Shown here one piece after another: positions 8,009 through 47,750 of a DNA stretch of 64,000 nucleotides. The notes below the pieces were generated by a model. It was not told the DNA's origin and did not search any database. It saw only the letters and a list, made by a program, of their open reading frames with translations. The translations under genes and the position numbers were made by a program. The stretch spans positions 7,936,001 through 8,000,000 of the forward strand of contig CM114271.1 in NCBI GenBank assembly GCA_050084515.1, in the 5' to 3' direction. Within the stretch, counting starts at the first letter, position 1, and every line of letters begins with the position of its first letter. Origin of the DNA: Blasia pusilla (lineage: Eukaryota).

Positions 8009-8725
8009 TTGCGTACACACATACACAATGGCGAATGTTCCCCTATTAGATCAATACTCATATGCTTTGAGCATCACCGGATGGATCCCCATCTTCGCTT
8101 TTCTTGTGATGAGGGAGGTGATGTTATATTTTGTGATGGTGCTTGTGGTCGCCATTTTCATTGGATTGGAGGTAGCATGCCCACCAACCCAGATAGTGGC
8201 AAGGGTAAGACGTGCATCCCTGTTGTGCTGCTTAGAAATCACGATTGGAGTGGACCTTGGATATGTGACCTATGTGTTGATGACAGAGCCATTTGTTTCT
8301 CTTGTGGGCTGGTTGGTCGTGTTGTTGGGCATACTGAGTTTGAGACACGACTCATCAAGTGTGCTCACCCGGATTGTTATTCCTTTTATCACCCGGGATG
8401 TGTGAAGACCCGCTTGCTTGTCGGAGGACTCTCGCAGGCTCACCTCGAGGCTCACACAATGCAAAGCCATCTTGTTGCTCCTGATGCACTCATCTGCTCG
8501 CGTCACTATTGTGATGCGTGCAAGATATATCAGGCGGGTATATATGACTTAGTGCAGTGTCGTAGATGCCCCCGTGCTTGGTGTTATGATCAAACCCCAG
8601 GAGGCAAGAGACACCTGCATAAAGGTTGTGATGTTAATGGCATGTGGAATTTTGGTGAGTGGCGACTTGTGTATTGCCGTCGTCATATAATTCCAGAGGG
8701 CCACTCTGTACCTACTTGGGATTAA
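8009..8725 (+). CDS. Tandem PHD-type zinc-finger protein (EDM2/NSD-like), possibly a fragment
   Basis: CDEGGDVIFCDGACGRHFH..WICDLC..CFSCG..IKCAHPDCYSFYHPGCV..CSRHYCDAC..LVQCRRCPRAW. Confidence 0.75.
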   Translation: MRTHIHNGECSPIRSILICFEHHRMDPHLRFSCDEGGDVIFCDGACGRHFHWIGGSMPTNPDSGKGKTCIPVVLLRNHDWSGPWICDLCVDDRAICFSCGLVGRVVGHTEFETRLIKCAHPDCYSFYHPGCVKTRLLVGGLSQAHLEAHTMQSHLVAPDALICSRHYCDACKIYQAGIYDLVQCRRCPRAWCYDQTPGGKRHLHKGCDVNGMWNFGEWRLVYCRRHIIPEGHSVPTWD

Positions 8726-16433: not shown

Positions 16434-16787
16434 TTTTCCCGGAATCGCTTGATCAAATCGCCTTGCTTATGTCGAGATGAGTTGCCTTGATGGGAAGTTT
16501 GAATCGTCTCGCGATCGTTCAGTCAAACCGTCTCGCTCTCGTTCGGTCAAACCGTCTTGCTCTCGTTCCCTCGTATCGACTCGCGATGACTCGCCGTGTG
16601 AAACGCCCCTTGGTATCTGATCAGCTGCTGCGCGGGAGAGAGAGGAATGGAGATCGCAAAATGAGAAACCGGAAATGAGTGATTTCTGCCCTATTTATAC
16701 TTTTCTAGCCGTTGGGCTGACCGTTCGGTCCCGTCGTCCTTTTGACGATGACGTGTCGGCCGTTACAAAAGTCCGGACGTGAAAAAT

Positions 16788-26092: not shown

Positions 26093-28204
26093 GAATTTGG
26101 ATTAAGAGCCCTTACCCGAACTTGACTCGTCGCCGATCGGAGTGGATACTCATTCTTGATGACCCATGATTGCGTCGTCCTCCACTTCAGCAACCTCTTC
26201 ATGCACTGATGGTTGAAGAGCTCGTCCTTGCTCCCTCCAGTCAAGACCAAGAAACAACCCCTGTCACTCAGATAAGCGTCAACAAAAGAAAACAAGAGCG
26301 CGATCAGGTGATAGGTAAGAGGGACATTCCAGTATAAGACAGTGTCAAGGATTGTTTTCCCACAAGCAAAACCCAGAGGGAAAATCTATGATGAGGAGAT
26401 CCAACGCCACCTCCTCAACCACCCCATGGATCGTCTAAGGAGTGTGCCCGTTTCGTTGAAGTTTTCGTCCCAGCATGGTCAATTTGTCGATGGCGGGTGT
26501 CGACTCCTGGGAACTGAAACTTTGCAGCTCATCCACAAAATTCTTGAAGTGAATGAGGACATTTTTCTTGGTCATTGTTTCTCTATGTCTTCCCAAGGAT
26601 GATGGAGTATATTCCACATCCTTATATGCTCCTCGGGATGAACCACGCGCCTCCCGCTTTTGCTTCTCCTGAGTCTGCAGTCGGCTTGTGGGGGTCTCTA
26701 TAACTTCAGACTCGACTAGAGTTTTCTTGGCGGAGGACCCGGTCCGGCCCTCTCGCCCCACTCGCCCGGACGATTCCGCCTCTCACCTTGAGGTCTCAGC
26801 CTCTTTTCTGGACGAGTCGGCCTCGGAATTCTTAGATCCCCTCGCCTTTCCTTTCAGACCCGCTGTAGATTTGTCCTTGGCGGTGAATACCTTGGAGACC
26901 AACTCCGCTGTCTCGAGGGTTTGCTCCTTTGCATCTCCTTCGAAAAAATCTTCAAGCTGCACGAAATTCAGAATGTCGTCCCTAAACGACCACTGCATCA
27001 TACACCTGGCGTAGATTTTTTTCGGTTATGTCCTCAGGGTCGTTGAAGTCCAACCAGATTGGGCAATTTTCAACCTCCCAATCGGACATGCCCTGTGCCA
27101 TCTCCATGTCGTACATGGAAAATTCCTCTCCATTAGGCGGAGAAGCCCACAATTTGCAGGATGCTGGTATTTTTTGCCAGGTACTTGCATTCTTACAATT
27201 GATGAGGTATCTATACACCATTCGTTGGGTAGCTCTTTGTCGAGATGAATCAGCCCCCTGCTCCTGAAGATCCCGCTTCTTCTTTGTGAAATCTCTTTGT
27301 TTGGCCTCAATTTCTTCATCCAGGCCTGCTTGAGGGAGGATGTGATTCTTCAACATCATCCTAAAGCTTGGGTTTTTCGTGGGCTTGTCTCAGATGTCAT
27401 CAAGCCATAGTTCAAAATCTTCTGCACTCTCGAGGTTTGCTTCCTCCGGAACTGGCTCTATCTTCTTCAGCTCCGCGCGAAGACCCACAAGCATGGACTT
27501 CCCGAGAAGCCGCAACGCGTCCCAGAATGACCATTCACGTAGCCAATGGGAGATCATTGGATCATAAACTCCCGAACGATGGTGTGCCGCCCTCTTTTGG
27601 GCCTCTGTGCCCTTGAGATTGATTTTCATCGATCGGATTCTCCTAAACTCGGAAATTCCAGACAGTGCAAATCTGTGAATGCGGTCCAAAGATACTTTCT
27701 CGCCAATCCAACATTGGATCTTCGTCTCTCTTCTGCTGGCGCTTGATTATCGCCTTGAGCTCCTTGTAGAATTCCGGGCCACGTTCCGAGTTCAAAATGG
27801 CAATGTTGTGCTGCATCTAACTTGCACTGTACTTCGTAGCTGCAGATACTACAGCCTGGATAAACTTTGCACCTTTAGACGCAGACACGTTCTCCCTTCG
27901 CTCCAGTTCCAATGAAGCACTCATCTTGACGGCCTGGATCTTCGACCAACAAAGGATTGTGACGGCTGTATCTTGGGAAATGAAGGTATTTGCCCAAGTC
28001 TTCTTTTTAACTTGAGCCCCTTTTGCCAGCATCTCATTTACCAGATGGTCGCCCAAGAACCCCTTGTTCTCTGTCGGGTGCATCGTAAGCACCTTTTTCA
28101 CCCTCTCGCAATCCTGGATCCAGTGGTGGGTGACGTTCCCCTTGGATATAATCTTGCACATCCAAACTGTCGCGCCCCTACTCTCCTTGAACGTCAATCT
28201 TTAG

Positions 28205-29905: not shown

Positions 29906-31499
29906 CAATCAAAATTAAGGAAGAGGAAACTTACGTATTCATGGCATGCATTACCATTTCCACCGTTGCCATGTGATGAGGAAATAGATGGAGGACGACT
30001 GCCTTAACGTAAAAATGTGCCTCCAATGAATTTCGGCGATCCTCTACAAACTGGGTCCACGCCATGTACCTGTGGTTTCCATCCCAGATGAAGAAGTAAA
30101 GGTTCCGCATCCAGCTAAATTGCGTCTCCTCAATCGCCCTTCTGAACTCCTGATCTCTCATCCTCCAAAATGTATTGAGCGCTTCCAAGTCCTCTTCCGT
30201 CACCAGCGCTTGGGTTCCATGTTCATCGTAAGGCTCAACATAGAACGGAGGGAAGTTGTCGACGTAGGATGTTGTCGCTGCCAACTGTTTCAACTTTGCA
30301 ATATCCTCCTCCGATTGAATTTCACAGACGTACTCCATTGTCCGCAATCGGCAAAGTGGAATTCTTGGGGCATTTTGGCCCTCCATTAGTGCCATCTGCT
30401 TAACAACCTGCCACAATGGGGACCAAGTCAATAAACTACACTGTTTTGCCAATAAATTTCCTCATGGGCCTTCACATAACTCAAACGTTTCTTACCTACT
30501 CAAAGATTGGGTCGGTGTCTTGGCCCGCCAAGTGCTCTAGGACAGCAAGTGGCAAGTCCACATGAAACTCATCGATCCGATAAAGGTTGATTTCTTCGGC
30601 CGGGCTCAAAGACGAGGAAGATTGTTCTCCTGCTTCTTCAGAGATGTCCACCATCTCCACGCTTGCCATCCTCATGACCTCATCGTCCGTCACTTGAACT
30701 TCGGCCGTTTCCTCAACCGATTTTATATTCATGGTGTCCCCAAACTTCATCGGGAATATTTCCTCCATCTCAACACTCTCTGTTGGACGGGCAAGGCTTT
30801 CTTTGATGGCAATTGCTTTTTCCCTTCGAGCTTTTGCCAATTCTGCTCTCCTCACATACGCGTCTAGACGCTTTTTCTCACGTTTCTCGTCCGCGACTCT
30901 TTTCTTCAAGGCGTGCGATGATTCAGCCTCGGCGTTTTGTTTTTCAAGTGCCTCTAGAACATGTTTTGCAAGAAGCTCATGCATGTGCATATTTGCTTCC
31001 CTTTCCTACTCCTCTATCTCTTGCTGCCTTATCTCATTGGACGAACGAGGCCCTGGAGATGGTAACGCAGGAGTCCTCATGGACTTGGGAGTGATGCTCC
31101 CTACCTTGCTTGCTTGCATTTTTTTCCTCATCATGGTTCCCGTCAATGCTTCCTCCTCGACAGTCTAGACTCTTTCTGTGCACGAAAATTCCCTCAAATG
31201 GTCTCGCGATGAATCGCCGTGACCCTAGATTGTGCACGAAAATTCCCTCGAATGGTCTCTCGATGAATTTCCGTGACCCTAGACCGCCGTGACCGTTTCG
31301 TGATGAAGCGCCCTCATCCTCCTCACCCCCCTTGGTATCTGGTCAGCTGCTGCGCGAAAGAGCACATGAAATCGCGAAACGAAAAATGGAAGTGAGCGAA
31401 ACCTCGGATATTTATACTTTTTGAGCCATTGAGCTTACCGTTGGGTTGCATTGTCGTACTGATGGCGACGTGTTGGCCGTTATGGAACTTTGGACGTGG

Positions 31500-32556: not shown

Positions 32557-35500
32557 GGATAATTATGTGAAGCTCACTTGTGGCAGTCATCGAGCGGCCC
32601 TTCCTCAATCAGAAATAATTCGACCATAAGCTTGTGAGTCTTTCATACCAATGGATGAAAATTTTCTCTCAGTTCGATTTCTTCTCCAAATTGGAACCAT
32701 CTTTGTGTCCAAGGATGTTAGGGTGGACAGTACAGAGGACATAATAGGTGAGACAGTCAAGCCAGTGATTGCTGACCGTAAAGTATGGAATCTCCTACCT
32801 CTAGCAAACGATCAATACAGAGTTTACGGCTTGCCTCTGAATTTCTCTGTTTCCCAAGTAGATGGTCGAGAATTTCCTAGTGCACCGAGCTCTACGTTTG
32901 CAACTCTGAGCTCAATAGATCCGGCATCGACTCCAACTTCACATGTTCGTAACAATGTTGTACTTCCTGAAGACATTCCGGATGTCGTCAACCTCAGCCT
33001 ACTCGTTCCTCTTACGAGTATCAGGCAATAGTTTGCTATCGTCTCTGCCCTTTAAAATTTTCAAGCACATTCTTGTCGATGAGGTGCCGCCCACGTACGA
33101 TGGTAATTGCATTTTTGAGTTGCCTCCACTTGCTGCTCCTGCTCAAAAGAAAGATGGTGGACGCTTGAGGGGTATGGACAGAAAGTCTAATTGTCATCGA
33201 TGGTGCAGGCTTCAACGGACTAGTGCTTCAATTCCAGATGGTCCTTGGATTGTCTCCTGCCGCCAATTGGTTGGAGCCTTGGAGTGTAGAAGTCCAGCAT
33301 GCCCGTATCTAGAGCGCAATGGGTGAGTCAATACGTCGCAATTCCCCCCCAAGAATGCAGAAACTCCACATGAGGTCGGTGTGACCATACCACTGGGAGG
33401 CCATCGATGTCCTCATTGTCAAGCATTCCCTTTCTGCGTTGGAGCGTGTCATGCATACATATTTTTCATTGTCCACGACTTCAGTTCTACGTCAGAGTAC
33501 ACAAGGCTGGCAGTTCATGTTGGCTCCCACACTCATCCTGTGACCGGTGCAGAACTTACCAAAGGATCCAAGACTTATGTCTTCAAAATGTCAACGACAG
33601 GACCATCGAGTGGCCTCGATCTTATAGATCGAATGAGGGAAGGGGAAGATCCTTACGACAACTGGATAAGCTTTGATATTTGCTACAGAGTGCTGAATGG
33701 ATGGTTGACCATGGGTGCTCACGTTTATGACCATGTGGAGAAGGGACTCAAAACTATATTTTTTTGTGAAGTAAAAGTAGAAGAGGTTGGCAGTTTGAAG
33801 ATGTGTTGGTTACTCTTTTTGGAGGTGGTGAAGGAAAACAAAAGGTCACCTCTGGAAATTTATGGGTTCATGGCGGACAATGCACAACCTGGGTGGATTG
33901 CTATCAGGGAAGTGTTCTGGGGTGGAGAGGTTCAACCGGAGAGGGAAAGGTCGGATGCTTTCCATTGGCAATAGTCTGTGACCCGGTACACCAAATCTTG
34001 CATCAAGGAGAATAAGAGGACAGAGCATGTCACTCTACTCCAACGCTGCAAGGACATCAAAACCTTGAAACAGGCCATGGAATGCCAAGAAGAACTTCAT
34101 GGGTGGTGGAGGAAGCATGCGCTTGAGGGGAAGTACAAAGAGTTGTGCTCTTGGCTGAGTTGGTGGACTGTACGAATCAGACAGTGGGGAAACTTCATGC
34201 GGCAGGTGAGTTCACTATTTCGTCTTGTCAAGCTCAGGTTGAGAATTATTTGAAAAGTTGTAGCTCAAGATGAGAAGCGTGGGCACTATAGGGATTTCAA
34301 ACCGAAGAAACCAAGCAACTTGTCGGATGCGACAGATTGCCCGGGTGTGCAACCCGTCGGAAACAGACAGGTTGCATCAAGAATCTTGGTGCAACCCGTA
34401 TGCAAGTCGCATGTATACAAGGCATGCAAATAGTTCGACCCGGATGGGTTTCGGATGACTTGCACTTGGATCTTCTAGCCCAGAGTGGCCATAGGTTCTT
34501 GCAACGTGTCAAAATTCGACGGGTTGCAGTAGGTGGTTACTGGGTATTGCAACACGTTGGGACTCGATGGGTCGCAGAGTCATTCATGGGATGCCTTTGA
34601 CTTGCAACCCGTCTGGTTCCGATAGGTAGCTTTTTTCTCTGACTTTGGAGCTATTTTGGTTCCCTTCTCACATTGCCGTCGTTGCAGGGATTGAACATTC
34701 ATGAAAATGTCCGCTGCCCCAACACGAGTGGAGCAGAAAATGTTCATTCCTCCGAGAGGTCATCACAAGCATGCCAAAGAATTTCCCTTGTGGAGGCATG
34801 CCAACAAGACCATGCAAGAGCAATGCTACAGTTTGCAGCATCCCATATCTTCCTCACAAAAGGCATAACGAAAGGAAGGGGGCCTTCGATGTACCTCTAT
34901 GTCAAGGCCGTTGTGAGATTGGGTGATGAGAAACTCTATGTGGAAGCCTTCAATTGGTGCGTAGCAGGAACTCCCCTTGAGCAAGACGTACACATTGGTG
35001 GGGATATTCGTGGGCGCGTTTCAAGACGTCCCATACAGATGGTGGTAGAACAATCCGAGCGAGACTCGTGGAGACCAGATAAGTATCTTGACTTCAGGCA
35101 GGTGAAGAGGCAACATCGAGGAACAAACCCGGTGATTGATTTGGATGAGGAAATCACGCCGCCCAGGTATTCGGAGACCCCGGATTCCTCCCAAATCTGT
35201 GATGCAGTAACTTCTCCAAAATCAGTGAATGTTTTATTTCAAAAGCCCTCCGTTGCTGGAAGTTCACAACATCTGGTCGTTGGGATGGTTCAACAATATG
35301 GGATTCCGGTCATTGAGGTAGATTGCAACCTCAAATGGTGGCATTTATCTCAGAGAAACCCTGGATATGGACCCACTTGCAGGGCAGGATCTGATGGCAT
35401 TAGGAGAGCATGCGGCACTTTCCTAAATAAGAATTGTACAAGGACTAGACGACCATTGCCTGGATTTTGGGGACTCAAAACCTTTGATCGTTTCACGAGG

Positions 35501-36179
35501 ACTAGGGATCAATTGAAGTACTTCTTCTGCCCAAATGAATCTTCCACTTTTTGGAAGTCTTATCCGGCTGCCATTGGAGCTCCAAGGAATACCCCCATGA
35601 TTTGGCCCATTTCCGCAGGTACGAATTGCACTCAAGACGAAGTGGACAATCTTACAAGTGTCGGTTTCAAACTCGTAGATGGAGGAAGTTTGGAGCATGT
35701 TTGCATTACAAAGACCTTCGCATTTCATATTCAACCCTGTCAACATGTACCCGGAGAAGGTGGATGATCTCAATCCACTATTTCTATTTGAGTCTAGAAA
35801 TGGGGTGAAGAGAAACAGAATGTCCAGGCCAATGGTGGAGAGAGCAAAGTAAATTGCATCAGCTCGGGAGGCAAAAATGGAGATCATCGCCACGAAGGAT
35901 GTCCAGAGTGGCAATGGAATAGGAAGGATGTATTTGGTCAAGAACAACACTATAGATTCAAGTGTCACAGGGGTGTATGTGGTGCACATCTGTTGCTTTC
36001 CCACATGTTCATGTGATGACTTTGTCCAAAGAGAGACAAGTGGGAAAAGGTATTTCCCTTGTAAGCACATGTACTATGTGTTGCTTGTAGTTTTAAGAGA
36101 GTCGGAGGTAGGAGTAGGAATCCACCAACCAATTTTGTCCCTCAAAGAAGTGCAAAGTATTTTAAACAAACCACTTTGA
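32557..36179 (+). pseudogene. Mutator-like transposase copy 2: N-terminal GCM/WRKY-like Zn domain, DDE core, C-terminal SWIM finger
   Basis: GALECRSPACPY..CPHC..C..HVGSHTHP; WISFD; FMADN; DAFHW (CxxH position); TSGAENVHSS (E); CSCDDF..PCKH (SWIM). GT-AG intron 34206-34687. Confidence 0.8.
34313..34632. repeat. Palindrome cluster in the transposase intron (copy 2)
   Basis: Degenerate copies inside intron 34206-34687. Confidence 0.85.
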
Positions 36180-36599
36180 GGATGCAAAATGAGGTTTTAG
36201 ATTGTACTTTCATTTTCCAGAACCTTCACTTTGAGGTTGAACTCTATTAAGCCCAAGGCAAATGATAGATTTTTTCCAGACCTTGGATGGAAAAAGTGAT
36301 TGGTTCCACACTTATGATTCCACTCATTTTTCAGTTTTCTAAATTTTGTGCAATTAGCAACTCGTTGGACTCAGATGAGTTGCCAAAATGTGGAAGAGGA
36401 AAAACAATTGTGGGAGTGCTTAAGAACTTAGCAGAAAAGTGGAAAATAAATCACACAAAAAGTTTCCTCTCTTCAACCCAACGAAAACTCTCTTCTAATC
36501 ACAAGAAACTCTCTTAAAAAAAAGTATATTTTTTGGTTGAAGGTAGTTTCCTCTCTCCTCTCTCCTCTCTTCCTCTCTTCCTCTCTTCCTCTCCTCTTA

Positions 36600-38388
36600 C
36601 CGCACCTCCATTCTGGTCTAGAGGCAATGGCATTACATATCTGGGCACAAAACCGGACCTCGTCTTTTTTTCTGAAACACATGAACATGATTCCAACCGC
36701 ATTTCCAATATAGATGACTTCCAGGTTTTTTCTATCCACAACCCACTCACAAACAGCAAAAGAAAAGAACACGGTGGCCTAGCATGTTTGGTAGCACCAT
36801 GGTTACAACCTTTTGTCTCCATAGCCGACATTGATGAGGAGAAACACTTCCTCTGGATCAAGTCCACCAAAGAAGCGGGGTTACCAAAAGATCTCCTCAT
36901 TGTTGTTTGCTACTTCAGTCCCACTGTGCTCAAAAGAATTCCCGTATGAGGCTCTCTCTACATCTATTGAGCACCACATGCAGAGGGGAAATATCCTCCT
37001 AGTAGGAGATTTCAACGGGAGAACGGCCAACACTCAAGCTCCAATTTACATGTCAAACAACACCAACATGGAAGGGACTGATGCTCAGTCCGCTGATGGG
37101 TCTCTCAGAGAAGTATTCTTCCCACACATGCACCGCAACTCACTGGACAAGGAAAAAGAGCCAATGGAGAGAAACTTCTCCAACTTTGCTCAACACATTG
37201 TTTGGTACTCGCCAATGGCATGGCTATGTGGCCACAGTCAGGAGGTCGCACTTCCATTGGACACTCTGATTCCAACAGAGAAACATCGATATCAATGGTC
37301 GGCTACCTGATTGGGTAAGTACATCAACTACCACATCTGGTTTCCAATGTGCGGGTCACACCCGTTCTAGAATCTAATCATGAACCACTCTACTTTGACA
37401 TCATGGTCTCCAAAACCACCCCAGAGGCTGCAGAAAAATTAACCATGCCGACCAAATGTCGATACACTTTCCTTCAGGAAATGAAAGATGAACTCATCAC
37501 ACTCGTCAACAAGGCTCTTACAGAGTGCTCACCCACAATGAACACGACTTGGTTCAGCGAGATCCTACATTCAATGTTGCAGAAAAGTCCTACCTTTCCA
37601 TCTGTTGGAGGAAACACATTAGATCCACTTCTATGTTCTTCTCCCAACCCGGGTTTGACAAGGACTGCAAAGAGGCCCGCAAGGAGCTGAATCACCGGCT
37701 GAGGCAGAATCCACACTCTCCACACACTCAATTATTGCAAAAAACTTACAAATGATTGGTACGTAGGAAGAAACAAAAATATATTGCCATCAAGATCACA
37801 GAGTTCACAAAACAGATGAAATACCAATTGGCCAAATTCTGGAGAATACTCAAGAATAGACCGAACATCATTCCACTCTAGGATCTACAGATCTGGACCA
37901 CATATGGTACCCAACTTTACCACTCCAACACTGCCGCTCCCACCGACCCCTCGCCGAATGGGCTTCAGGATCTACCGGACCTCTTCACCATTCACGATGT
38001 CACATCAAGAATCAAAAGGCTACATAACAAACCAGAGGATGTCTTGAGGTGAAAGACTCAAATGTTCAAATTCGCAAGTGAGGCAATTGGTCCAACCCTC
38101 ACTAGAATGTTCAATACTGCAATTCAACAGGGCTTCCCCCCAGAATGGCAAATGAATACGATCTACCCGCTCTTCAAGGCTGGAGACCCAATGATACCAT
38201 CCAACTAGAAAACGATTATGGTGAGCTCCCTCATGGCCAAGTTGTACGGGCTACTGCTGGAAAGGAAAATCAGTGACTGGGCTGAAGAAAAGAAGGTGCG
38301 AGCCAGAGGACAAGCAGGTTTCCGACACTCACATAGCACCCTGGACCACCTTCTCACACTCCGGGTACTGATTGAAGAAACTTCCAAG
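36600..38388 (+). mobile_element. LINE ORF2 5' part (APE endonuclease + RT N-terminus), degenerate
   Basis: DLVFFSETH, GGLACLV, LVGDFNGRT, SNHEPL; PLFKAGD, QAGFRHSHSTLDH. Confidence 0.85.
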
Positions 38389-40719
38389 TCCAGCAAGAGA
38401 ACACCAGATGGCAAAACGTCACGCACTCTCAAGAAAATGCGCCCTGCAGTCATATCCAATGTTGTCTGCATGCCTCGCCACCAATACTGAATCTGGAGCA
38501 AGTTGTATGTCCGCTTCACCCCAAAGTGACCCAACTCCTCGCGGGCATGCTGCACTAGTCGTGCTCTCTGCAAAGGATGCGGCACTACGCGTACTGTGCC
38601 ATCCTCCCAAATCCTCAAAACATGTGTCCCCTCCCAACGGAACCGTCTGGCCCGCTGTAGGATCCGATCCCGCTCTCTAGCACCCACGGTGCTCGCAATG
38701 CTGCCAGTACAAAGGTACTCCAAGACTACTCTATCATCATGAATATCTCGGCCACTTGTCATCTCCTCGCTGGCCTCGAGATCCAAGGACTCTCCACTAG
38801 ACCTCGCCATCAAAGTCTCCACACTCTGGCTCTCCATAGCCAACATGCCTAAATAGATTGACGTGTGCCATCCTGGCATTGACTCCTCATCACTCTCTCC
38901 ATGCCATCGAGCTCCAGTCGCATCTTGCTGACTCGGGCATGGGTTACGACTTAGCCCATCTGCATGTTGGTTGAGCGTCCCAGGTCTATGTACCACCTAA
39001 AAATCATACTCCTGCGACAATAGAGCCCATCTCGCAAGCTTCTCTGTAAGCTTGTTGGACTCCATCAACCACTTCAGTGGTTGATGATCAGTGATGATGG
39101 TAAAGGGGTTGCCAAATAAGTAACACCTAAAATGCATGACAGCCCACACCGCAGCCAAGCACTCACCCTCATACGAGTTGTACTTTCCTCTGCAGCGTTG
39201 TTCGAGCGGCTAGCGTAAGCCACCACGAACTCTCTACCCTCATCATCATGCTGGGTGAGCACCGCTCCAAGCCCCAACATGCTCCAATCTGTGTGCAACT
39301 GGAAAGGACGCCCCCTGATCGGTCTCCACAAGATGGATGCGGACGTCAACCTGTCCTTGAGCAACTAAAATGCTTGCTCCTCTTTATTCCCCCAGTGCCA
39401 CTCGTGATCCACCTTGATCAGTAAGGTCAGCGGCTTCGCAATCGAACTGAATCTCATGACGTACCGCTGATAGAAGTTCGCCAATCCCATGAATGCGCGA
39501 ACACGGCTCACATCTGTAGGGAGTGGAATGCGTGAGATAGCCTCTACCTTTGTTCGCTGAACACCAAGGCCGTCTGGGTATATCGTATGACCCAGGTACT
39601 CAATCTGGTCGTAGAAGAACTTGCACTTGCCTGGATGTAGCTTCAGCCCATGTAATTGCAATCGTCAAAACACCTCCTCTAGATGTCGCTCATGCTTCTC
39701 AACCGTGGTGCTAAAGACTACAATGTCATCAATATAACACCTAGCAAAATCCAGACCAGCCAAGATCCTATCCATAACCCTCTAAAAGTCAACCAGGCGT
39801 GCTTTAACCCAAATGGTAAGAACCGCCACTGGTACAAACAATCCTTCCCGTGAGCATCGATGCCCCAAAATATCGTCTTCAGCCTGTCCTCCAATCTGAT
39901 AGGCAGCTGATGATATCCGACTCGCAAATCCAATAAATTGAAGACCTTTGCATGACCAATCGCATCAAAGATCTCCTCAGGGGTGGGCTTGGCATACCTA
40001 TCGAACTTTGTCTGCCGATTGATAGGTCGGTAATCCCCACACGGATATCCGCCTATCCGTCCACTTGCCATGCACATCCTTCTTGGCGGTCATGACATTG
40101 GCAGATGCATACTCCCCATGCGACATCTCCACTAGTCTTGGTCCGACCAAGTCCTGGCTCCTACTCTGAATCAAAGCCCTCTCCATATCATTGTACCTAT
40201 AGGGTCGTCGGAAGATTGGCGAATCACTCGAAAACTCAATGCGGATCGTGGGTCCTTTCAGCGTACCAAAATCCTCCATGCTAAACGCAAAGCAGCTCCT
40301 ATAACTCCTGAGGAACTGATGTATCCGGCGCCGCTCTCCTCCTCTCAACTTAGGTCCCATATCTGGCTCCCAAGTCTCCATTGTGACTACGATAGCACTC
40401 TCCGGCGCAGGTATCGGTGGTTGCTATGGTGCAACCCCGTCTCGAACAACACTCGGCTGCTCTCCTATATCCAACTACAAACTCTGATCTCCTCCACGTG
40501 CAGTATCCAGAACCACGCTCGATGGTGTGGCTATCATCTCCAGGCGTACCTACAAAACATCCCAAGAAGTCCAAGGGTGTCTCTCCCAATCTCCCCTCGT
40601 CTCTAGATCTCCTCGGGTCTCACTCCCAGCCACTGCCTCCACCGTCTCGGTAGGCATGGGGCTCACCAATGCAACCACCGTGATCTGTTGCGATCTCATA
40701 CAACACTCCTCACTCACTC

Positions 40720-41660
40720 CCAAGCTGAGGATCCATGTCAAGCAGTTCACGTCCATCGCCTGACCCAAGACATGACGTCGTGATACCTCTGACACTGACC
40801 GTACTGCCGTCACTCTTGTGGGAAATCCCATCGCTCGCTCGCTCTCGTCGGCGTTGGGCTCCACCAACCGCTAAACATGGTCATCCCAAACCAAGCCAGG
40901 ACCGGCCTCCTTGTATGCATAGGAAGCGAGAAAACTCATAAACGTGGGCAAGGCTGCCCGCGGCCTGTCTACCCTGTTGACCACAGTCAACGGTGGTCGA
41001 TCATCGTGCCTCACTGCCTATGATCGATGACCTGGATCCAGAATGGAATCCACTAACAAATGAAAGGGGTGCTCCACTCTCGCATACGCCCTCCATAACA
41101 CCGCATGGGGCACCAAGTTGGTCCACCATAGACGCGGGCAATGGGCTCTAGAACCTACACTCGCCGCATCCAAGAAGAGTGTTTGGCCGATCCAGGCACG
41201 CACCTGATGAGCACTTGTCACCACCCGTGACCTGGAGTCTCTTAAGATCGGCATATTCTCCAGAATGTAGGCTGGAGAACGAGATTGATGCTCCTACAAC
41301 TGCCGTAAGACCCTCAACATCTCCCAAAAAACCTGGACGGAGTGTCAGCCAACCCGTTGCCTCGTCCATCACTCGATTGGCCCTGACATGGCCAACCGGC
41401 AATGACCAAATCAATGGTCCCTACACACCCCCAACAACGAAATATCCCTTGGTAGGGAACTCTGGTACCCCTCTACCGCGGACGCAGACAATAAGTCGGG
41501 AAAACGTATGCGTAACTGCGCCACATGTCGTAGTGAGAGGCGCCTTCAACATCATCACTCTCCACATATAGATATTTTTGTACTTGCACTCTTGTCTGCA
41601 AAACAGCAGCTAACCCAGTGCTAATCTCTCCAAAGAGATCTAACACTCGAATACCCTCCT
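40720..41660 (-). pseudogene. DNMT3-like C5 cytosine methyltransferase domain embedded in the Gypsy pol
   Basis: Motif I IRVLDLFGEISTG (~41655-41615); IV DLVIAGWPCQG (41412-41380); VI YILENM (~41270-41252); VIII DAASVGSRAHCPRLWWTNL; IX-X ERAMGFP..RRHVLGQAMD. Frameshifted. Confidence 0.85.
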
Positions 41661-42483
41661 CCGGGATACACCACACAATGGGTGTGGTATCCAAGGGTAT
41701 CATCGTAGCACTCCCTCCAACCTTGGGTTCCTCAGACCCGTCACGCTCTGGTGCAAACGCCTCGCTCCACACGATCGGCACGTGCTCATCTGCCAATCGT
41801 CGAAGCTCCTCAATCAAGCCCCACACTGGCACCTCTCCTCCACAGAATGATGCGGCTACCATAACACTCCTCTCCATAGAAATGTCAGGAACGGGAGTAT
41901 CCTCTGCATGGACATGTCCCTCAATCAAATCACTAGGCCAAGTGATGGCACCGATAAATACTGCTAAGGTCGCCATCTCTCTTGGCCGTTGTTTGATCAC
42001 TGCACCTGTGAATCAAATGGGTAATGAGCTAAGGCGCCCATCACCTAACTGCCATCCTGGTCTGTAGGACGCTGACTCCTCCCAGTAATCCAGGGCAAAC
42101 CCCATCGGGTATAACACTGCTCCACCAACCAAGACGTCATAGGACTCTGCATCAGTCACTATCGTCTTGGCTCGCACCACGGACTCATCTGTAGGATGTC
42201 ACGGGCCAATCCTCACCACGACCTCCTGTCGGGTGATATTTTGTGTGGTTCTCGCTCTACCCAAGGATGTCTGTATCCGGAATGGACAACGTCCCACATC
42301 CGCTCTCGTCAAGTCCAATCCTCTGAATGAGGCTCTCCCCAACATCACGGGTTGCGCTCCTGAATCCAACAAGATGCGCTGCGGACTAAAAGCTCTGTCT
42401 CCGGGACTCACCAACTGGAAGACCTCTCCTTGGTTATCCAGCAACACAACACCAGGAGAAGCCATGGCACGCTCTATCGCGGC

Positions 42484-43101
42484 TGTCGTGCGCATACACA
42501 TCGCTACACAACATACATCGCTGTCATCAAACACACACACAAACACACACGATCCCATGCTAACTCATGGTATCCATACACAAAGGCGAGAAGTACCAAA
42601 ATATCTCACAACGCAAGGGACCATAGCTCCGTCGTCTCATGCCAAGAGGTTCAACAAAGAGAGAATGAGCCTATACCCCTCTCCTCTCCCAAGCTCTCTC
42701 CATGGTAACCTATGTCACCTCCTTGGCTCTTGACCTGATGTAGGAGGTCAATGGACAATTACCAAAAATATAAAGTCAACTATCCCTAATATGGAAACTT
42801 ACTCGAAATAGTAAGTTTCTCTATACGGCTCCAAATGAGCCGAAACGAAGGGGAAACCTGCTCTCTCACGTTTCTTGAGGCCTCAACAGGTCATTCTTGA
42901 CCTCATGGGCTTGTCCTACACTACTCGTGAAGACGCTCTGCTAGATCCCACCGATCTATCCTAACATTCGTGCTAGTTGTCGTGCGCATACACATCGCTA
43001 CACAACATACATCGCTGTCATCGAACACACACACAAACACACACGATCCCATGCTAGTTCTTGCCATCCATACACAGAGGCGAGAAGTACCAAAATATCT
43101 C
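42484..43101 (-). mobile_element. LTR copy (42484-42966, TG..CA) plus a partial second copy (42978-43101) inside gag-pol
   Basis: 42610-42966 aligns with 46970-47380; tgtcgtgcgcatacac.. is duplicated at 42484 and 42978. Confidence 0.7.
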
Positions 43102-46100
43102 CAATCGCCCCCCCTAGCTGGTGGTTAGGTCCCTCTACCTCCAGACACCAGGAGAAGCCATGGCATGCTCTATCGTGGGTCTAGCGGGCATCTCCGCCAT
43201 CCTAGCAGCCGCAGACTGCCATGAATCATGGACGGCCCAAGCATCCGCTCCAACGGTAGGTCCATCACCTCCTCTGCAATCACCTCTGAACGTGATGCAA
43301 GAACTCCAACTCCGTGCTCACATAGCAAAGCGGCAAGCCAAAAAGCCTCGGCGGGCGTACCCCCCAACGTCATAACATCGAAAGCATAAAATAAAGGAGT
43401 GCGGTACAGAATGGTGGCCGCTCCCAACAACGTGCTCGACACATGCCCCTCATAAGCATCAACAATAGGAGTCGTCGCACTCGCTTCTCCCATCGCCCTC
43501 CGTGCCTGCACACCAACTACATCACCAACTCTCCATGAACTTTGATGAGGACCCATCGATGGGGTCCTCATCGCTTCGGACAACGTAAAAGACTGAGGAA
43601 GCCTAGTCTGTTTTCTGGCTTCCCCTCACTGTGGATCCAACTCTGCGGCTGCTCCACGTGTCACAACTGTGGCGGCCTCCATCTAGGCAACCCCGCACAT
43701 CCAACCAGGATCCTCCAGATCTCTGGCTGCTCCATATGATGTCGATGCCACAAATCAGACATCGGATAACCTCAATGCCATAGCGGAAATCTACTCATGT
43801 AGCTGTTGGATCTGAGTTGCCATCCCAGCCTCACGTCTGGCGTCTCTCTCGGCGCGTCTAGGTGGTGGTACTCTTCCTCCTCCGCGGAAAGCTCCACCAT
43901 CCTGTCGGGAAGCTCCACCTCCTCGTCCCCAACGGGACCACCTGGTGCACGATCTCTAGCCCACCCGGACCGGCTACTCGCTATGGTGCCCTCTCTGGCC
44001 CTCGGTCCGAACGTAACTCAGAATGTAAGCTGAAACACATGGCGCGTGTATGACCATACCTCTGAAAATAGTCACATTGATAATATCCTGGTGCAGCACC
44101 ATCTCCTCCTCCATGCAGAGGCACACGTCTATGACCCTGACGAGTGCAATCGCGCTAATAACGGGCTCCACCACATGACCAACAAGTAATAGTAGGCGAC
44201 TGCTGCTGAGCCGCATATGAAGGCGTAGGTCTCTGTGGCACGGCCTCCCGGTATCCTCCCTGAGCTCGTGGTGCCACACTCGACCTATCTCGGAGTCCAC
44301 GTTGTTGCACAGGTAGTGCAGACAATCGTGACTTTTCTTGCCCAGAACCCATGGTGGCTACGCTCTCCTCCGCCATGTTGCGCTCAATGTTCTCGGTGGT
44401 CCTAAAAATATCTCTCAATGTAGGGGAGGTGTTCATAAGAAGCACCCCCTCCCACACCCGTGTCCATAGGGTCCGGTCCAGCATCGCGTACCATGACTGG
44501 ATAGCCTGAGCCTCTGTCACCCCCTGAGTGACGTTGATCAACCGGCGCATGCGAGTGTAAGCCTCATGCAAACTTTCACCCGGTCGCCTCTAGAAGTCAT
44601 GGATGCTCCGCAACTTCTCCGTCCGTACCCCCTAGTAGCTCGCCCTCAACTCATCAAAGAACTCAACCACAGGGTTGAACCTGGGACGAACCCGACTACA
44701 CGATGCAACTGCTCCCGTGCGAGTGATCCCTCCTAAAACGTCACTAGTGGAAGAGGAAGTAGCCTCTCCTGACTCCTCCTCCTCATCTAGGAACGGCTCC
44801 GTCCATGACATAGAATGTGGGTCATAGTAGAGCCTCCACGCCTCCATCTCACGTGCATATCTTTGAGAGAACTCATGGTAATCATCCATGGGCGCCCCCT
44901 CTAAATGCTAGAACATACTGTTCCATGCTGTAAACGGGTTGAAATCTCTAGAGTTCCTGGCCCGTTGGGAGTCACACCAACTCCTAAACTCTGCTATGAA
45001 ATTGTGCAACTCAATCGTACCTACTGCACCTGAAAACCTACGTTGTCCTCTACCCCGATCGTCCATCTCGTACGCCCAATTGGTAGGACCCCTCACAATG
45101 TGTGGCGATGTGCTCACAAACTCCTCTAGACCCTCCCCCTCATCTGACAATGACACAGAAGGAGGTCAAGGTGGTCCCTCACATGGAGACCCTCAGAACC
45201 TCGCGCCACTCCGCGTAAAACCTCTAGAGCTACTCTCGGGTTCACCACCTCGCCTCTCAAAGTCCCGAACAGACGCCGTGATGACCCTTGTGCCCCTCTC
45301 ACCCGATCACTCTCACCTCGTGAATAATCTTTCAATCACTCATCCCAAACATGCGGCACTCGATCTACACTCTCCCTCCCCGAGACGTGTAACGTGCGGC
45401 AACGAGCGGCGTGGTGCGGCAAATTGACCAGGCTATCATCTCATCGACAACCTACCCTCAACTCTGGACATCCCACACAAGTCTATGTTCCCTAAACCAC
45501 ATACATAAATGATGCTCTCAGCATCCACACACCCAATATCCCCACATAAACTTCCAAAATCCCATAATCCCTCACACGTGCAGGATAAAAGAGCAGAATG
45601 GATAACCTGAACACATGTCGATGTTGCTTCTCAACAACTGCAAATCTCGACCCCAACTCGGTTGTGGAGACAAATCCTCCAATTTGCAAGTCATACTCCT
45701 CCCGTTCTGATCCTGCTCAAAACTCCTCGATAGACTACGATTCCAACAGAATGGTGCGGCGTTACAAGCGGCACAGAACGGCTACGAACGACACGGCCCT
45801 CGATGGTGGGATGCGGCACTCGGCGGCATAACCTCCTCAATAAAAAATAAACCCACACTCTGCTCCACAATGATGGTGCGGATCCATGATCAAGACGGTG
45901 CGGCATGGCCACAAGCGGCACAGCGCGGCAATCGGCGGTGCGTTGCGGCTACGGGCGTCACAGCACGATACTCGATCGTCATCGAGTTGCTACCAATCAC
46001 AACATAGCAGCATGAAATCAGAACTCAAACACCATAACTGGAGGTCATCTGCCATCACTGGATGATGACGAAACTATGATGACGGTGGCGGCCAAAATAA

Positions 46101-46899
46101 ACTACGTGGTGGCGACGCAAGTCAGAGAATCAACGAACGTCGTGGAAGACCCTCCACTTCCTAATGACGACAATGGCAACCAAAGGGTGGACAACGGACG
46201 GTGGACCATTAACGGTGACGATTGATTGTCGACGGTGATGGTTGACCATTGACGGTGGACCATTTACGGTGACTATGACGGCGACGGCCGCCGCCGGCGT
46301 GGCAGCTGGGCGGCTGGTTTAGGATTGCCCTAAAAATCGCATAACAATGGCAGTTTTGCAAGATTGACCATAACTTTTTGCTCACAACTCCAAATTGCGC
46401 ATTGTTTGTTGCACAATGTGCACAGCTTCACGATCTACAACAGCGTCAAAAAATATTTAAAATCGAATATTCCAGTAAAAACTGATTGGGACTGTCGTAA
46501 AGCCCAATGTCTCTTTCTCCTACACAAAATTCGGCAACGCTTCAGCGCTGATTTCTCCCAACGAAAATGTAAAACTTGTAAAAATACAAATCAGAAAGCT
46601 TGATGGTGCTCCCGAGAGCACGGTATGGGGCAACCCGCCCCCATAATCAATCCCTATCAGAAATTGGGCAACGCTTCCGCGCGCCACTCTTCCACACGAA
46701 AAATCGGCAAATGCAAAAAAATCAAAGCAGCCCTTGCTCCGATGAGCACTCCCATGAGCCGCTGAACGGAGAAGACGGTCCCCAACCTGCAAAAACAGGG
46801 AGTGACCAAGGAGCTCCTCCATGAAGTTCTCTCACTCTCTCATTCTCTCTTTGTAAAGTAAGATCCAATCTCTCTCTACACCATCTCACACCATAGCTC

Positions 46900-47380
46900 T
46901 CAAAGGTGTGCACTCTCTCTCATATCAAACCAAAACCACTCTCCTAATGAGAGGCTTGGGTTACACTCACAAGGCAAGGGACCATAGCTCCGCCGCCTTA
47001 TGCCAAGAGGTTCAACAAAGAGAGAATGAACTCTCAGAGTCTCTCTCCTTGAGGTATACTCCTCCCCTCTCCCAAGCTCTCTCCATGGTAACAAATTCTC
47101 CCAAGTCACCTCCTTAGGTCTTGACAAGGAAGGTCAAGGGCCACTTACCAAAAATAGGAGGTCAAAGGCCACTTACCAAAACTATAAAGTCGATCATATA
47201 CTCAAAATCATACTTACCTAAAATAGTAAGTTTCTCAATATGGCTCCAAATGAGCCGAAACGAAGGGGAAACCTGCTCTCTCAGGTTTCCCGAGGCCTCA
47301 GCAGATCATCCTCGACCTATTGAGCCTGTCCTCCGCTACTCACGAAGGCACTCTACTACATCTCATTGATCTATCCTAAA
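46900..47380 (-). repeat. 5' LTR of the Gypsy element (inner boundary uncertain)
   Basis: Similar to the LTR at 42484-42966; ends gatctatcctaaa vs gatctatcctaaca. Confidence 0.65.
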
Positions 47381-47384
47381 AGAC

Positions 47385-47750
47385 GTGACAAAGAAAAGAG
47401 AGGACAGATTATGTAGATTTTGCAACTCGGGGCTTATTGATGATGAACATCACTACCTCTTCGTCTGCACCTTTCACAATCACAGTAGGCTTGACTTCCC
47501 GGATCTTTTTGTTCATGGGGCTCCCAAGGTCCTCGTGTTCATGGCTAGGCAGAATCAGACTCAGATTACTAAATTCTTGCATAGTTGTGTGAAGACCAGG
47601 GACACTCACCTGGCTCTGAGGACCCCTTAGGCCCTCGCTGGTGCTTGCTCTCTCTCCAGAATTGTTGTTAAGTCTCAAAACTAAGTCCCATGGCCCTGTG
47701 GGGTTCCCGTGGACAATAAATCTATTCATTCACACATTCTCTCTCTCTAA
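47385..47750 (+). mobile_element. LINE ORF2 C-terminus and 3' end
   Basis: RLCRFCNSGLIDDEHHYLFVC, then aataaa followed by a cattca/CT-rich tail. Confidence 0.75.

Follow-up and report, generated by a model that had tools for sequence, protein, structure and literature searches.

On the minus strand of the 64-kb stretch of Blasia pusilla DNA analysed here (the window), we found a truncated Ty3/Gypsy element, extending from 45066 to 38466, that comprises gag with a CCHC knuckle, protease (PR), a C5 cytosine methyltransferase (DNMT), reverse transcriptase (RT), RNase H (RH) and the start of an integrase. There is little doubt that this is a Ty3/Gypsy LTR retrotransposon copy, dead and truncated at its 3' end, whose polyprotein was once a single frame running from gag-CCHC to integrase with a DNMT3-like domain inside. 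Judging from the deposited proteins, the annotation of Marchantia polymorpha contains intact and very similar copies of the lineage with the PR-DNMT-RT layout, named class A in this analysis, and Calypogeia and Sphagnum have relatives. The account set out below, which takes in the identity of the copy, its decay and the likely working of the live family, is as a whole very likely the best explanation of the element.

Structure and decay of the element

The features of the element are collected in Table 1. An earlier note, made from the sequence alone, had called it a Gypsy element, and this is confirmed here by the order of PR, RT, RNase H and integrase and by the RT_RNaseH_2 and Integrase_H2C2 scores, which exceed the Pfam cutoffs. 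The gag reading, with the Met of MDDRGRG at 45064-45066, no longer runs through: it contains several stops, TAG or TGA, as well as frame changes, and Pfam recognised no gag family among the ORF pieces. The CCHC knuckle, starting at CWSCGG (44167-44184), falls inside the gag portion of the alignment with the Marchantia protein P0154; a close paralogue of the latter (P0158) is named in the database as a CCHC-type domain protein, and a further relative, P0026, has Pfam zf-CCHC. Between gag and protease, the P0154 alignment jumps the interruption, with residue 619 at 43144 and residue 609 at 42480. The insert found there, of about 370 bp (42605-42972) and with 73% identity to 46966-47387, lies between two direct copies of a 124-bp piece of the element (42484-42607 and 42978-43101, 94% identical). 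Since Pfam gave no protease match on the window pieces, the assignment of this region rests on its active-site motif and on homology. The TAG at which the linker ends is not conserved, because homologues have K or G at the same position. The RT reading is broken by stops and frame changes, and Pfam RVT_1 reached 21.4 and 18 bits on the window pieces, under the cutoff of 29.6.

Table 1. Parts of the element and motifs of its methyltransferase domain (positions in the window)
Feature	Positions	Strand	Basis or sequence
Gag-upstream sequence, possibly 5' UTR or LTR, boundary undefined	45067..46900	-	Inference; window holds no second copy to define an LTR
Gag region	43144..45066	-	tblastn: Marchantia P0154 residues 8-619 align to 45054-43144
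Gag/protease interruption	42481..43143	.	Repeat finding; skipped by homologous proteins
Aspartic protease region	42013..42480	-	LLDSGA active-site motif (42355-42372); collinearity with P0154, P0164 and P0026 (residues 778-926)
DNMT3-like C5 cytosine methyltransferase domain, pseudogene	40733..41700	-	Family HMM and motifs
Motif I	41611-41646	-	VLDLFGEISTGL
Motif IV	41374-41403	-	IAGWPCQGQS
Motif VI	41249-41272	-	AYILENMP
Motif VIII	41114-41155	-	GSRAHCPRLWWTNL
Motif IX	40820-40852	-	ADESERAMGFP
Motif X	40733-40771	-	VLGQAMDVNCLTW
DNMT-RT linker	40424..40732	-	Shares frame with both neighbours; ends at TAG 40550-40552
Reverse transcriptase	39365..40423	-	YIDDI (39722-39736); tblastn, P0164 residues 690-1037, 55% identity
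RNase H, Ty3/Gypsy type	38997..39364	-	Pfam RT_RNaseH_2 5.3e-15 (55.7 bits) and RT_RNaseH 4.2e-10 (40.2 bits), both above cutoffs
Integrase N-terminal zinc-binding part	38466..38996	-	Pfam Integrase_H2C2 5.7e-08 (33.2 bits), above cutoff

The final homology of the element by tblastn places residue 1931 of P0026 at 38466; the copy has neither an integrase core nor a 3' LTR, and a tblastn search of the whole 64-kb window did not find such a core either. Because the 3' end is missing beyond that point, an LTR pair is impossible in this copy; a direct-repeat search and a self-BLAST of the window disclosed no direct repeat flanking the element, neither a target-site duplication nor a primer-binding site was noted, and the LTR part of the classification is therefore unproven for the window copy. 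Only one copy of the element occurs in the 64 kb.

The reading path of the methyltransferase runs through 41700-41548, 41545-41423, 41421-41335 and 41332-40553, with frame changes near 41547, 41422 and 41334 and with TAG stops at 41294-41296, 41018-41020 and 40871-40873, in keeping with the decay that the earlier note had described. A path with a single frameshift and a TAG at 41473 was rejected, since the family HMM (see below) shows three frame changes and leaves 41473 off the path. Along the homology path 21 stops were counted (14 TAG, 7 TGA and no TAA), at least one of which (41473) lies off the true path. TAG stands opposite a Q of the relatives at 44908, 44632, 41294, 41018, 39782 and 38997, and TGA opposite an R at 43626 and 42013. 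We infer that this pattern, mostly TAG or TGA where the relatives have Q or R, is the one expected from C-to-T decay of methylated cytosines; the CpG observed/expected ratio is 0.73 in the element versus 0.63 in the rest of the window, a depletion no stronger in the element. From what is seen directly and what can be deduced, function was also lost through the frameshifts, the insertion upstream of the protease and the loss of the 3' end. With three frame changes and three stops the enzyme of this copy cannot be active, and the copy is a fossil with no present function.

Elsewhere in the window, a second transposon ORF (11483-12670) had 35 matches, among which the 22 named by organism were all from Riccia; this family and that of the element are unrelated to one another and the named relatives of both are exclusively bryophyte, which makes a land plant the probable host, most likely a liverwort or some other bryophyte. 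A LINE beside the element was considered on account of plus-strand ORF fragments that looked LINE-like by eye, and was set aside, with no Pfam match on them. The search for RNA genes in the window turned up no tRNA, and no Rfam family reached its gathering score.

The methyltransferase domain

Motifs I, IV, VI, VIII, IX and X follow one another in canonical order along the minus strand, from 41646 to 40733, in the order and within the coordinates that the earlier note had given. A family HMM (A1), built from 23 intact relatives, was searched against all 1687 stop-to-stop six-frame ORF pieces of the window. It matched six of them, all on the minus strand within 40553-42012 and collinear at profile positions 88-469 (E values from 2.3e-29 to 5.2e-07), and no other piece among the 1687; at the level of sequence, the methyltransferase signal far exceeds chance. 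This significance rests on the relatives, because the standard tools are weak on the window pieces by themselves. Pfam DNA_methylase (PF00145), the profile that the earlier note had proposed, gave 17.9 bits for 41314-41472 and 14.1 bits for the read-through N half, below the cutoff of 22, a shortfall due to the fragmentation of the pseudogene and the divergence of the family; the same profile was present in 12 of 22 and 10 of 13 intact relatives in the two sets scanned. Against the PDB, phmmer with a window piece reached DNMT3A at an E value of 0.17. For the C half the best PDB match was an unrelated dioxygenase (E 0.038), which we dismissed, Pfam and PDB searches on raw pieces being too weak to decide.

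The window copy keeps 13 of the 15 invariant columns of A1 and 34 of the 39 conserved at 90% or more. Among the residues kept are the Cys of motif IV, the Glu-Asn of motif VI and the AH.R..W.N of motif VIII, and the substitutions with respect to the family are G to E in motif I, V to M in motif VI and R to S in motif IX. The C half of the methyltransferase and the RT lie in one common reading frame and the element is collinear with the single-ORF relatives P0164 and P0026, and for these reasons the methyltransferase, by its sequence, was in frame with protease and RT before decay set in.

We considered whether the domain could instead be a one-off capture or a chance neighbour, that is, a fragment or pseudogene of a host DNMT3 that came to lie, in this one genome, within an ordinary Gypsy element or next to it. 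The single copy in the window, its heavy decay and the lack of LTRs to delimit it would fit such an origin, but the shared frame just described does not, nor do the relatives. By tblastn, Marchantia P0154 is collinear with the element as gag-PR-DNMT from 45054 to 40556, and Marchantia P0164 as PR-DNMT-RT-RH, reaching 38613, so that the gag-DNMT-RT order is reproduced, and P0026 carries the matching domain order in a single ORF of 2188 amino acids. The location claimed from the outset, on the pol strand with the protease on one side and the RT on the other, was thus corroborated. Moreover, 36 of 172 related proteins show the PR-DNMT and/or DNMT-RT layout, contrary to what the earlier note had named as fatal to its proposal (other members lacking the domain), and in ten of them the methyltransferase runs straight into the RT within the same protein. 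A one-off capture is therefore highly improbable, and we treat the methyltransferase as a regular part of the element family.

Likeness to DNMT3 was evaluated with the family profile and with a predicted fold. Against the PDB, the A1 profile matched DNMT3A best (8.6e-26), followed by DNMT3C and DNMT3B (about 1e-23), tobacco DRM (1.5e-16), AtDRM2 (4e-13), M.HhaI (2e-10) and DNMT2 (1e-07); DNMT1 was not among its 57 PDB matches. The AlphaFold model of the relative P0153 (pLDDT 83.1, pTM 0.81) retrieved DNMT3A, 3B and 3C first in Foldseek (E about 6e-18, target TM 0.80-0.84), and the best 50 matches listed were all DNMT3A, 3B or 3C. DRM chains align to A1 positions 82-229 through their C-terminal residues 212-352 only (range of six DRM rows), and the motif order of the element is not DRM-like. 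These best matches to solved structures, by profile and by modelled fold, support a DNMT3-like domain, the label that the earlier note had given it.

Relatives of the element

A phmmer search of 1.84 billion representative proteins with the C half of the domain yielded 759 matches at E<=1e-3 and 30 at E<=1e-30, with a best value of 2.5e-83. Bryophyte proteins of the lineage were already deposited as hypothetical (13 from Marchantia polymorpha, two from Calypogeia and two from Sphagnum), and the tree placed the window row in a 24-row clade with all 17 bryophyte-named rows (SH-aLRT 96; FastTree 0.999), the terminal branches of the Marchantia copies measuring 0.01-0.16. No Klebsormidium name appeared among the organism-named matches, and an ESM Atlas search returned generic DNA_methylase clusters with no taxon of use. 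The earlier note had correctly cited the previous reports on Symbiodinium and on Gypsy elements of Klebsormidium (PMC5890265), and had suggested that the window extends this range to land plants. The bryophyte clade upholds the extension itself, although it is not unique to the window, given the Marchantia, Calypogeia and Sphagnum proteins already deposited. In the literature searched, Gypsy-DNMT3 elements were described for Klebsormidium only and we found no report of DNMT-bearing retrotransposons in bryophytes; the supplementary spreadsheet of PMC5890265 includes Physcomitrella, Selaginella and Klebsormidium, and does not include Marchantia or Sphagnum. We therefore found no paper on the bryophyte occurrence, yet its proteins are in public databases.

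A larger sister family (class B) occurs in chlorophyte algae and combines RT, RNase H, the methyltransferase, integrase and a PHD finger. Of the 20 class A domains, 19 have the catalytic Cys, as do all 46 of class B, and the Glu of motif VI is found in every domain of both sets. On the strength of these conserved catalytic residues and of the short end branches in Marchantia, the methyltransferase is, as far as such comparisons tell, kept by selection in the family.

What is conserved need not be DNA methylation, and the domain might instead methylate the genomic RNA, as an RNA m5C enzyme, or have no catalytic role and serve the polyprotein by binding nucleic acid or as a structural part. Glu takes the place of Pro in the catalytic Pro-Cys pair in six of the 20 class A and 26 of the 46 class B domains, which on sequence grounds makes canonical activity doubtful for some members. 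In addition, KnitGypsy-Dnmt3, the sole Gypsy-type DNMT3 reported to have been assayed (PMC5890265), gave no methylation in yeast, a result that its authors deem inconclusive, and the same paper suggests RNA methylation for a LINE-borne enzyme. Against this, the bryophyte clade retains the canonical Pro-Cys-Gln; across the 66 domains there is hardly any variation at the catalytic Cys, at the Glu-Asn of motif VI or at the Arg and Trp residues of motif VIII; and the best matches are the DNA enzymes DNMT3A, 3B and 3C, far ahead of the RNA enzyme DNMT2. We consider loss of DNA methylation by the domain improbable, and a DNA methyltransferase the better reading.

Possible role of the methyltransferase

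In a live element, the methyltransferase would be translated within Gag-Pol and packaged with the RT in the particle, where, with SAM as the donor, it could carry out de novo cytosine methylation of the new cDNA, or do so at the fresh insertion, and the new copy would then arrive pre-methylated. There is a precedent in Symbiodinium, whose retrotransposon DNMT3 domains methylate CG de novo in yeast and for which methylation of the cDNA has been proposed (PMC5890265); these are the only enzymes of such a retrotransposon kind reported to do so. As Marchantia genes carry little methylation (PMC5784723 and PMC11244446), and methylation in liverworts marks transposons rather than genes, the likeliest benefit would lie in self-limitation or in a shielding of the cDNA rather than in passing for a gene. 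On balance, self-methylation of the cDNA or of the insertion site might be the mechanism of the live family, with a chance that we place somewhat short of even.

The enzyme could also be directed at host DNA, either at the flanks of the insertion or elsewhere, steering integration into heterochromatin, blunting RNA-directed silencing or altering gene expression. Class B, which joins the same domain to chromatin-reading modules (a PHD finger and sometimes a Tudor domain), speaks for an action of this type, and effects on the host epigenome were discussed by de Mendoza et al. 2018 (PMC5890265). However, class A elements, the window copy included, have no PHD finger or chromodomain in the parts seen, and the methylome of Klebsormidium nitens is, according to the same paper, ordinary and plant-like despite its elements. 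We regard action on host DNA as a rather doubtful alternative to methylation of the element's own cDNA or insertion.

A joint reading of these data would make Gypsy-DNMT3 a lineage of green plants that is ancient, widely distributed and active to this day, derived from one capture, in which the position of the domain later changed (ahead of the RT in streptophytes and bryophytes, behind RNase H and with a PHD reader in chlorophytes); young copies in Marchantia polymorpha would express a working de novo methyltransferase that contributes to the methylation of new insertions. We put this forward tentatively, as a reading that is less likely than not. If true, Gypsy-borne DNMT3 would not be a Klebsormidium curiosity. 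Among transposon-encoded cytosine methyltransferases, activity has been reported only for enzymes of dinoflagellates, organisms in which experimental manipulation is difficult. The window points to land-plant elements of the same kind, with many near-identical copies with open frames in Marchantia polymorpha, a species with routine transformation, genome editing and published methylomes. With open copies in so tractable a plant, it becomes directly testable whether the enzyme methylates its own cDNA, whether this benefits or restrains the element and whether methylation leaks to the host genome. The pairing with a PHD finger in chlorophytes suggests, in turn, that retrotransposons have assembled chromatin toolkits repeatedly, which echoes a 2026 preprint on adenine methyltransferases.

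Comparison with known systems

Among the closest known proteins are those of Marchantia (Mp_8g17980, Mp_4g09160, Mp_6g11220, MARPO_0091s0058 and others), Calypogeia fissa and Sphagnum, which belong to the same lineage as the window element, are collinear with it from gag to RNase H and are 53-63% identical to it in the C half of the methyltransferase. The frames of these copies are open and their motifs canonical (GG in motif I, PCQ, ENV), whereas the window copy is broken. The latter forms a separate branch of the clade, with 54.7-60% domain identity to ten clade members and 65% identity to an incomplete Calypogeia row (187 columns compared).

With DNMT3A, 3B and 3C, plant DNMT3 and DRM2, the element family has in common the fold and the signatures AH.R..W.NL and E.ER..GFP, which line up with mouse/human DNMT3A in the profile search, at about 20-22% identity to DNMT3A/B/C. 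In Marchantia, a host enzyme of this class, MpDNMT3b, is identified in a preprint as Mp5g09290. Unlike host DNMT3, it lacks PWWP and ADD domains and sits in a retrotransposon polyprotein, and its stretch between motifs VIII and IX is longer and has conserved motifs of its own. The motif order of DRM is permuted, while that of the element domain is not.

Class B (for example, Haematococcus lacustris QJQ45_013313 and Chromochloris zofingiensis Cz02g39130) is Gypsy-type, as class A is, and its methyltransferase is 36-40% identical, with family-specific motifs in common. The two classes differ in that the domain follows RNase H in class B and precedes the RT in class A, and in the PHD finger, joined in some cases by a Tudor domain, that class B carries at its C terminus after the integrase. 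The named hosts of class B are chlorophyte algae, and its methyltransferase domains make up a separate clade.

Among the published elements, SymbioDIRS-Dnmt3 of Symbiodinium (PMC5890265) has, as here, a DNMT3-type domain inside a retrotransposon Pol, but it belongs to the DIRS class with a tyrosine recombinase and to another host kingdom, and is regarded as an independent capture. KnitGypsy-Dnmt3 of Klebsormidium nitens (PMC5890265), likened here by its published description, also bears a non-rearranged DNMT3-type domain in the Pol of a Gypsy element of a streptophyte. The elements of K. nitens have DIRS-like repeats and their host is a charophyte alga, whereas that of the window is a bryophyte; in both KnitGypsy-Dnmt3 and the window family, the key catalytic residues are conserved.

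Results

The element is a broken retrotransposon polyprotein spread over minus-strand stop-to-stop ORFs from about 45200 to 38200. In a Pfam scan of 15 ORF pieces, only two families exceeded their cutoffs (see the table); RVT_1 reached 21.4 and 18 bits (cutoff 29.6) and DNA_methylase 17.9 bits (cutoff 22; piece 41314-41472), and sub-cutoff matches to Pdase_C33_assoc and SpeFL were taken as chance. An earlier note had placed a DNMT3-like domain at 40720-41660, between protease and RT, on the basis of six methyltransferase motifs. All six were found on the pol strand, in canonical order and at positions fitting that interval. The element ends at about 38466, within the integrase zinc domain, and the integrase core was absent by tblastn from the whole 64-kb window, in which direct-repeat search and self-BLAST disclosed no LTRs of the element either.

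Landmarks, Pfam domains and methyltransferase motifs of the element
Feature	Position	Strand	Basis
gag Met	45064-45066	minus	landmark
CCHC knuckle (gag)	44167-44184	minus	landmark
Protease LLDSGA	42355-42372	minus	landmark
Methyltransferase motif I	41611-41646	minus	motif reading
Methyltransferase motif IV	41374-41403	minus	motif reading
Methyltransferase motif VI	41249-41272	minus	motif reading
Methyltransferase motif VIII	41114-41155	minus	motif reading
Methyltransferase motif IX	40820-40852	minus	motif reading
Methyltransferase motif X	40733-40771	minus	motif reading
RT YIDDI	39722-39736	minus	landmark
RT_RNaseH_2	39074-39364	minus	Pfam, 55.7 bits, above cutoff
Integrase_H2C2	38205-38996	minus	Pfam, 33.2 bits, above cutoff

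When the domain was read through as two halves with X at TAG stops, the N-terminal one scored 14.1 bits with DNA_methylase and the C-terminal one did not score, and the best DNMT3A match of the window sequence in PDB had an E of 0.17 (phmmer). Taken alone, the window sequence would thus be weak evidence for a methyltransferase, and it is the similarity to its relatives that settles the question. Against 1.84 billion representative proteins, the C half yielded 759 phmmer matches at E<=1e-3, of which 399 had E values of 1e-10 or less and 30 of 1e-30 or less (best, 2.5e-83). When all six frames of the window were searched as 1687 ORF pieces with a profile of 23 intact domains (A1), 6 pieces matched (E 2.3e-29 to 5.2e-07). 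These lie on the minus strand within 40553-42012 and are collinear with the profile, and no other piece of the window matched.

The same profile was compared with solved structures. It matched DNMT3A best (8.6e-26), followed by DNMT3C and DNMT3B (about 1e-23), tobacco DRM (1.5e-16), Arabidopsis DRM2 (4e-13), M.HhaI (2e-10) and DNMT2 (1e-07), and DNMT1 was not among the 57 PDB matches. The DNMT3-type signatures that had been claimed were borne out by the profile alignment, where AH.R..W.N and E.ER..G pair with AHRARYFWGNL and EMERVFGFP of DNMT3A. With DRM, only the C-terminal part aligned, consistent with the permuted order of that enzyme, whereas the motif order in the window is non-permuted. 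An AlphaFold model of the related protein P0153 (32-row alignment; pLDDT 83.1, pTM 0.81) had DNMT3A, 3B and 3C as its first structural matches (E about 6e-18, target TM 0.80-0.84, about 21% identity). By these best matches to solved structures, the domain is classed as DNMT3-like.

The element was collinear in tblastn with three relatives, each skipping a 663-bp interruption between gag and protease (42481-43143). Mp_8g17980 of Marchantia polymorpha (P0154; gag, PR, DNMT) aligned to the window from 45054 to 40556, and MARPO_0091s0058 (P0164; PR, DNMT, RT, RNase H) aligned down to 38613. The third was P0026, a single 2188-aa ORF with the Pfam order zf-CCHC, DNA_methylase, RVT_1, RNase H, integrase. 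A word-indexed search gave 22 proteins 38-64% identical to the C half, among them 13 from M. polymorpha, 2 from Calypogeia fissa and 2 from Sphagnum; PF00145 was present in 10 of the 13 relatives scanned. Local profile searches assigned layouts to 172 related proteins: 79 carried the DNMT domain only, 36 the layout of the window (class A; PR-DNMT and/or DNMT-RT, with DNMT running straight into RT in 10), and 57 a second one (class B), in which RT, RNase H, DNMT and integrase succeed one another and a PHD finger usually comes last. The frequency of the window layout and the collinearity with Marchantia proteins from gag to RNase H argue against a one-off insertion of the domain.

Class B represents a larger Gypsy family with the same kind of DNMT3-like domain differently placed (for example, P0021, P0031, P0055, P0172, P0253 and P0290), and accounts for most of the 120 matches listed from a profile search. 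Its named hosts are chlorophyte algae, such as Haematococcus lacustris (QJQ45_013313, P0253) and Chromochloris zofingiensis (Cz02g39130, P0290), and a Tudor domain accompanied the PHD finger once.

The catalytic residues are nearly invariant over an alignment of 66 domains: the catalytic Cys is present in 19/20 class A and 46/46 class B domains, and the Glu of motif VI in all of both classes. The Pro of the motif IV Pro-Cys is replaced by Glu (GWECQG, as in P0026, P0141, P0061 and P0054), with the Cys retained, in 6/20 class A and 26/46 class B domains; the pair is intact in the bryophyte clade and in the window.

The window copy is a fossil, and its decay had been pointed out in the earlier note. 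Besides the truncated integrase, A1 matches trace the DNMT reading path through 41700-41548, 41545-41423, 41421-41335 and 41332-40553, that is, with three frame changes, and TAG stops lie in the path at 41294, 41018 and 40871, with a further one at 40550 in the DNMT-RT linker. The copy retains 13 of the 15 invariant A1 columns and 34 of the 39 conserved at >=90%. The second Gly of motif I is changed to Glu and the Val of motif VI to Met (both residues constant in 20 class A domains), and the Arg of motif IX, present in 19 of these 20, to Ser. From gag to integrase, 21 stops were counted along the path of homology (14 TAG, 7 TGA, no TAA), one of which (41473) is off the true path. Homologues often carry Q under TAG and R under TGA, consistent with the decay of CAG and CGA codons by C-to-T change. 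The CpG observed/expected ratio was 0.73 in the element and 0.63 elsewhere in the window; the element thus shows no special depletion. The interruption contains an insert of about 370 bp (42605-42972) that is 73% identical to 46966-47387, upstream of the gag of the same element. On both sides of the insert, element sequence is directly duplicated over 124 bp (94% identical), longer than an ordinary target-site duplication would be.

FastTree, run on the window copy and 83 near-full DNMT domains, separated the layouts into two clades, class A (SH-like support 0.977) and class B (0.819); in P0092 the DNMT adjoins integrase, and thus this protein is no exception. A quick IQ-TREE run with 52 rows placed the window within a 24-row clade (SH-aLRT 96) that held every bryophyte-named row, as a separate branch sister (support 90) to a group with Calypogeia, Sphagnum and Marchantia. 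End branches among the 13 Marchantia rows were only 0.01-0.16 and one cluster represents 18 member sequences, which we read as recent amplification. The two domains from Sphagnum, a moss, fell among the liverwort rows, beside a JGI protein, and not outside them, so that the element tree departs from the species tree. Taken together, these sequence relationships suggest either sublineages that have long co-existed or horizontal transfer, and recent bursts of amplification in Marchantia.

Nearly all of the window derives from transposons, and no tRNA genes or Rfam families at gathering score were found in its 64 kb. At 9610-13272 (plus strand), long open frames of 389, 395 and 224 aa, without Pfam families, probably belong to a large, recently active DNA transposon. 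The middle one (11483-12670) has 35 relatives, of which all 22 with a named organism are from Riccia sorocarpa or R. fluitans, one being a transposase according to its source. Identity to these reaches 57%, and is 51% for the best match that covers the full length. Along with the bryophyte relatives of the Gypsy element, this indicates as host a liverwort or other bryophyte, one with no proteins of its own at high identity in the database. The ORF fragments at 36518-38490 (plus strand), which abut the truncated integrase end on the opposite strand, gave nothing in Pfam at E<=0.1; by eye, we take them to resemble the endonuclease and RT start of a non-LTR retrotransposon. At 33327-36179 (plus strand), ORFs that match the SWIM zinc finger weakly (16.9 bits, cutoff 19.6) suggest a Mutator-like transposase, and parts of this region recur inverted at 17548-19483 (about 79% identity). 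An ORF at 8006-8725 (plus strand) encodes a PHD zinc finger of the NSD type (PF22908, E 2.9e-07, above cutoff). Two more repeat families (77-79% identity) pair 634-2361 with 26110-27846 and 15226-16441 with 29918-31142; the latter encodes a 160-176-aa ORF with a sub-cutoff DUF1015 as sole Pfam match.

Discussion

The methyltransferase lies within the polyprotein, and both the observation and the interpretation of the earlier note hold. The enzyme would be produced with Gag-Pol and carried alongside RT, and could methylate freshly made cDNA or the newly inserted copy. According to the accessible text of De Mendoza et al. (PMC5890265), Symbiodinium DIRS enzymes caused CG methylation in yeast, from which self-methylation of cDNA was proposed; the Klebsormidium Gypsy enzyme caused none, a result the authors call inconclusive. 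In Marchantia, genes are reported to bear little methylation and transposons much (PMC5784723, in part), and gene-body methylation to be generally absent from liverworts and mosses (PMC11244446, in part), so that disguise of the element as a gene seems unlikely there. Self-limitation or cDNA protection fits better, although this is conjecture.

The consulted parts of PMC5784723, PMC6453930, PMC11244446, PMC9033089 and a Marchantia 4mC preprint make no mention of DNMT-bearing Gypsy elements, and our literature search, insofar as texts were accessible, met no paper describing class B. Nor did we find one on a bryophyte DNMT-bearing retrotransposon or naming the Marchantia loci, which closed-access papers or supplements could hold. 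The accessible text of PMC5890265 gives such retrotransposons in Klebsormidium and Symbiodinium only, and its spreadsheet includes Physcomitrella, Selaginella and Klebsormidium; Marchantia and Sphagnum are absent from it. A 2026 preprint (10.64898/2026.05.21.726589), in the part available, cites as prior cases Symbiodiniaceae and 'streptophytes (Gypsy-DNMT3)', to which it joins DNMT4-like ones from Cymbomonas and Euglena. The lineage of the window copy is of the Gypsy-DNMT3 kind, now seen in land plants. In a model plant that is open to experiment it has copies that appear young, and its sister family in chlorophyte algae is larger and of another architecture.
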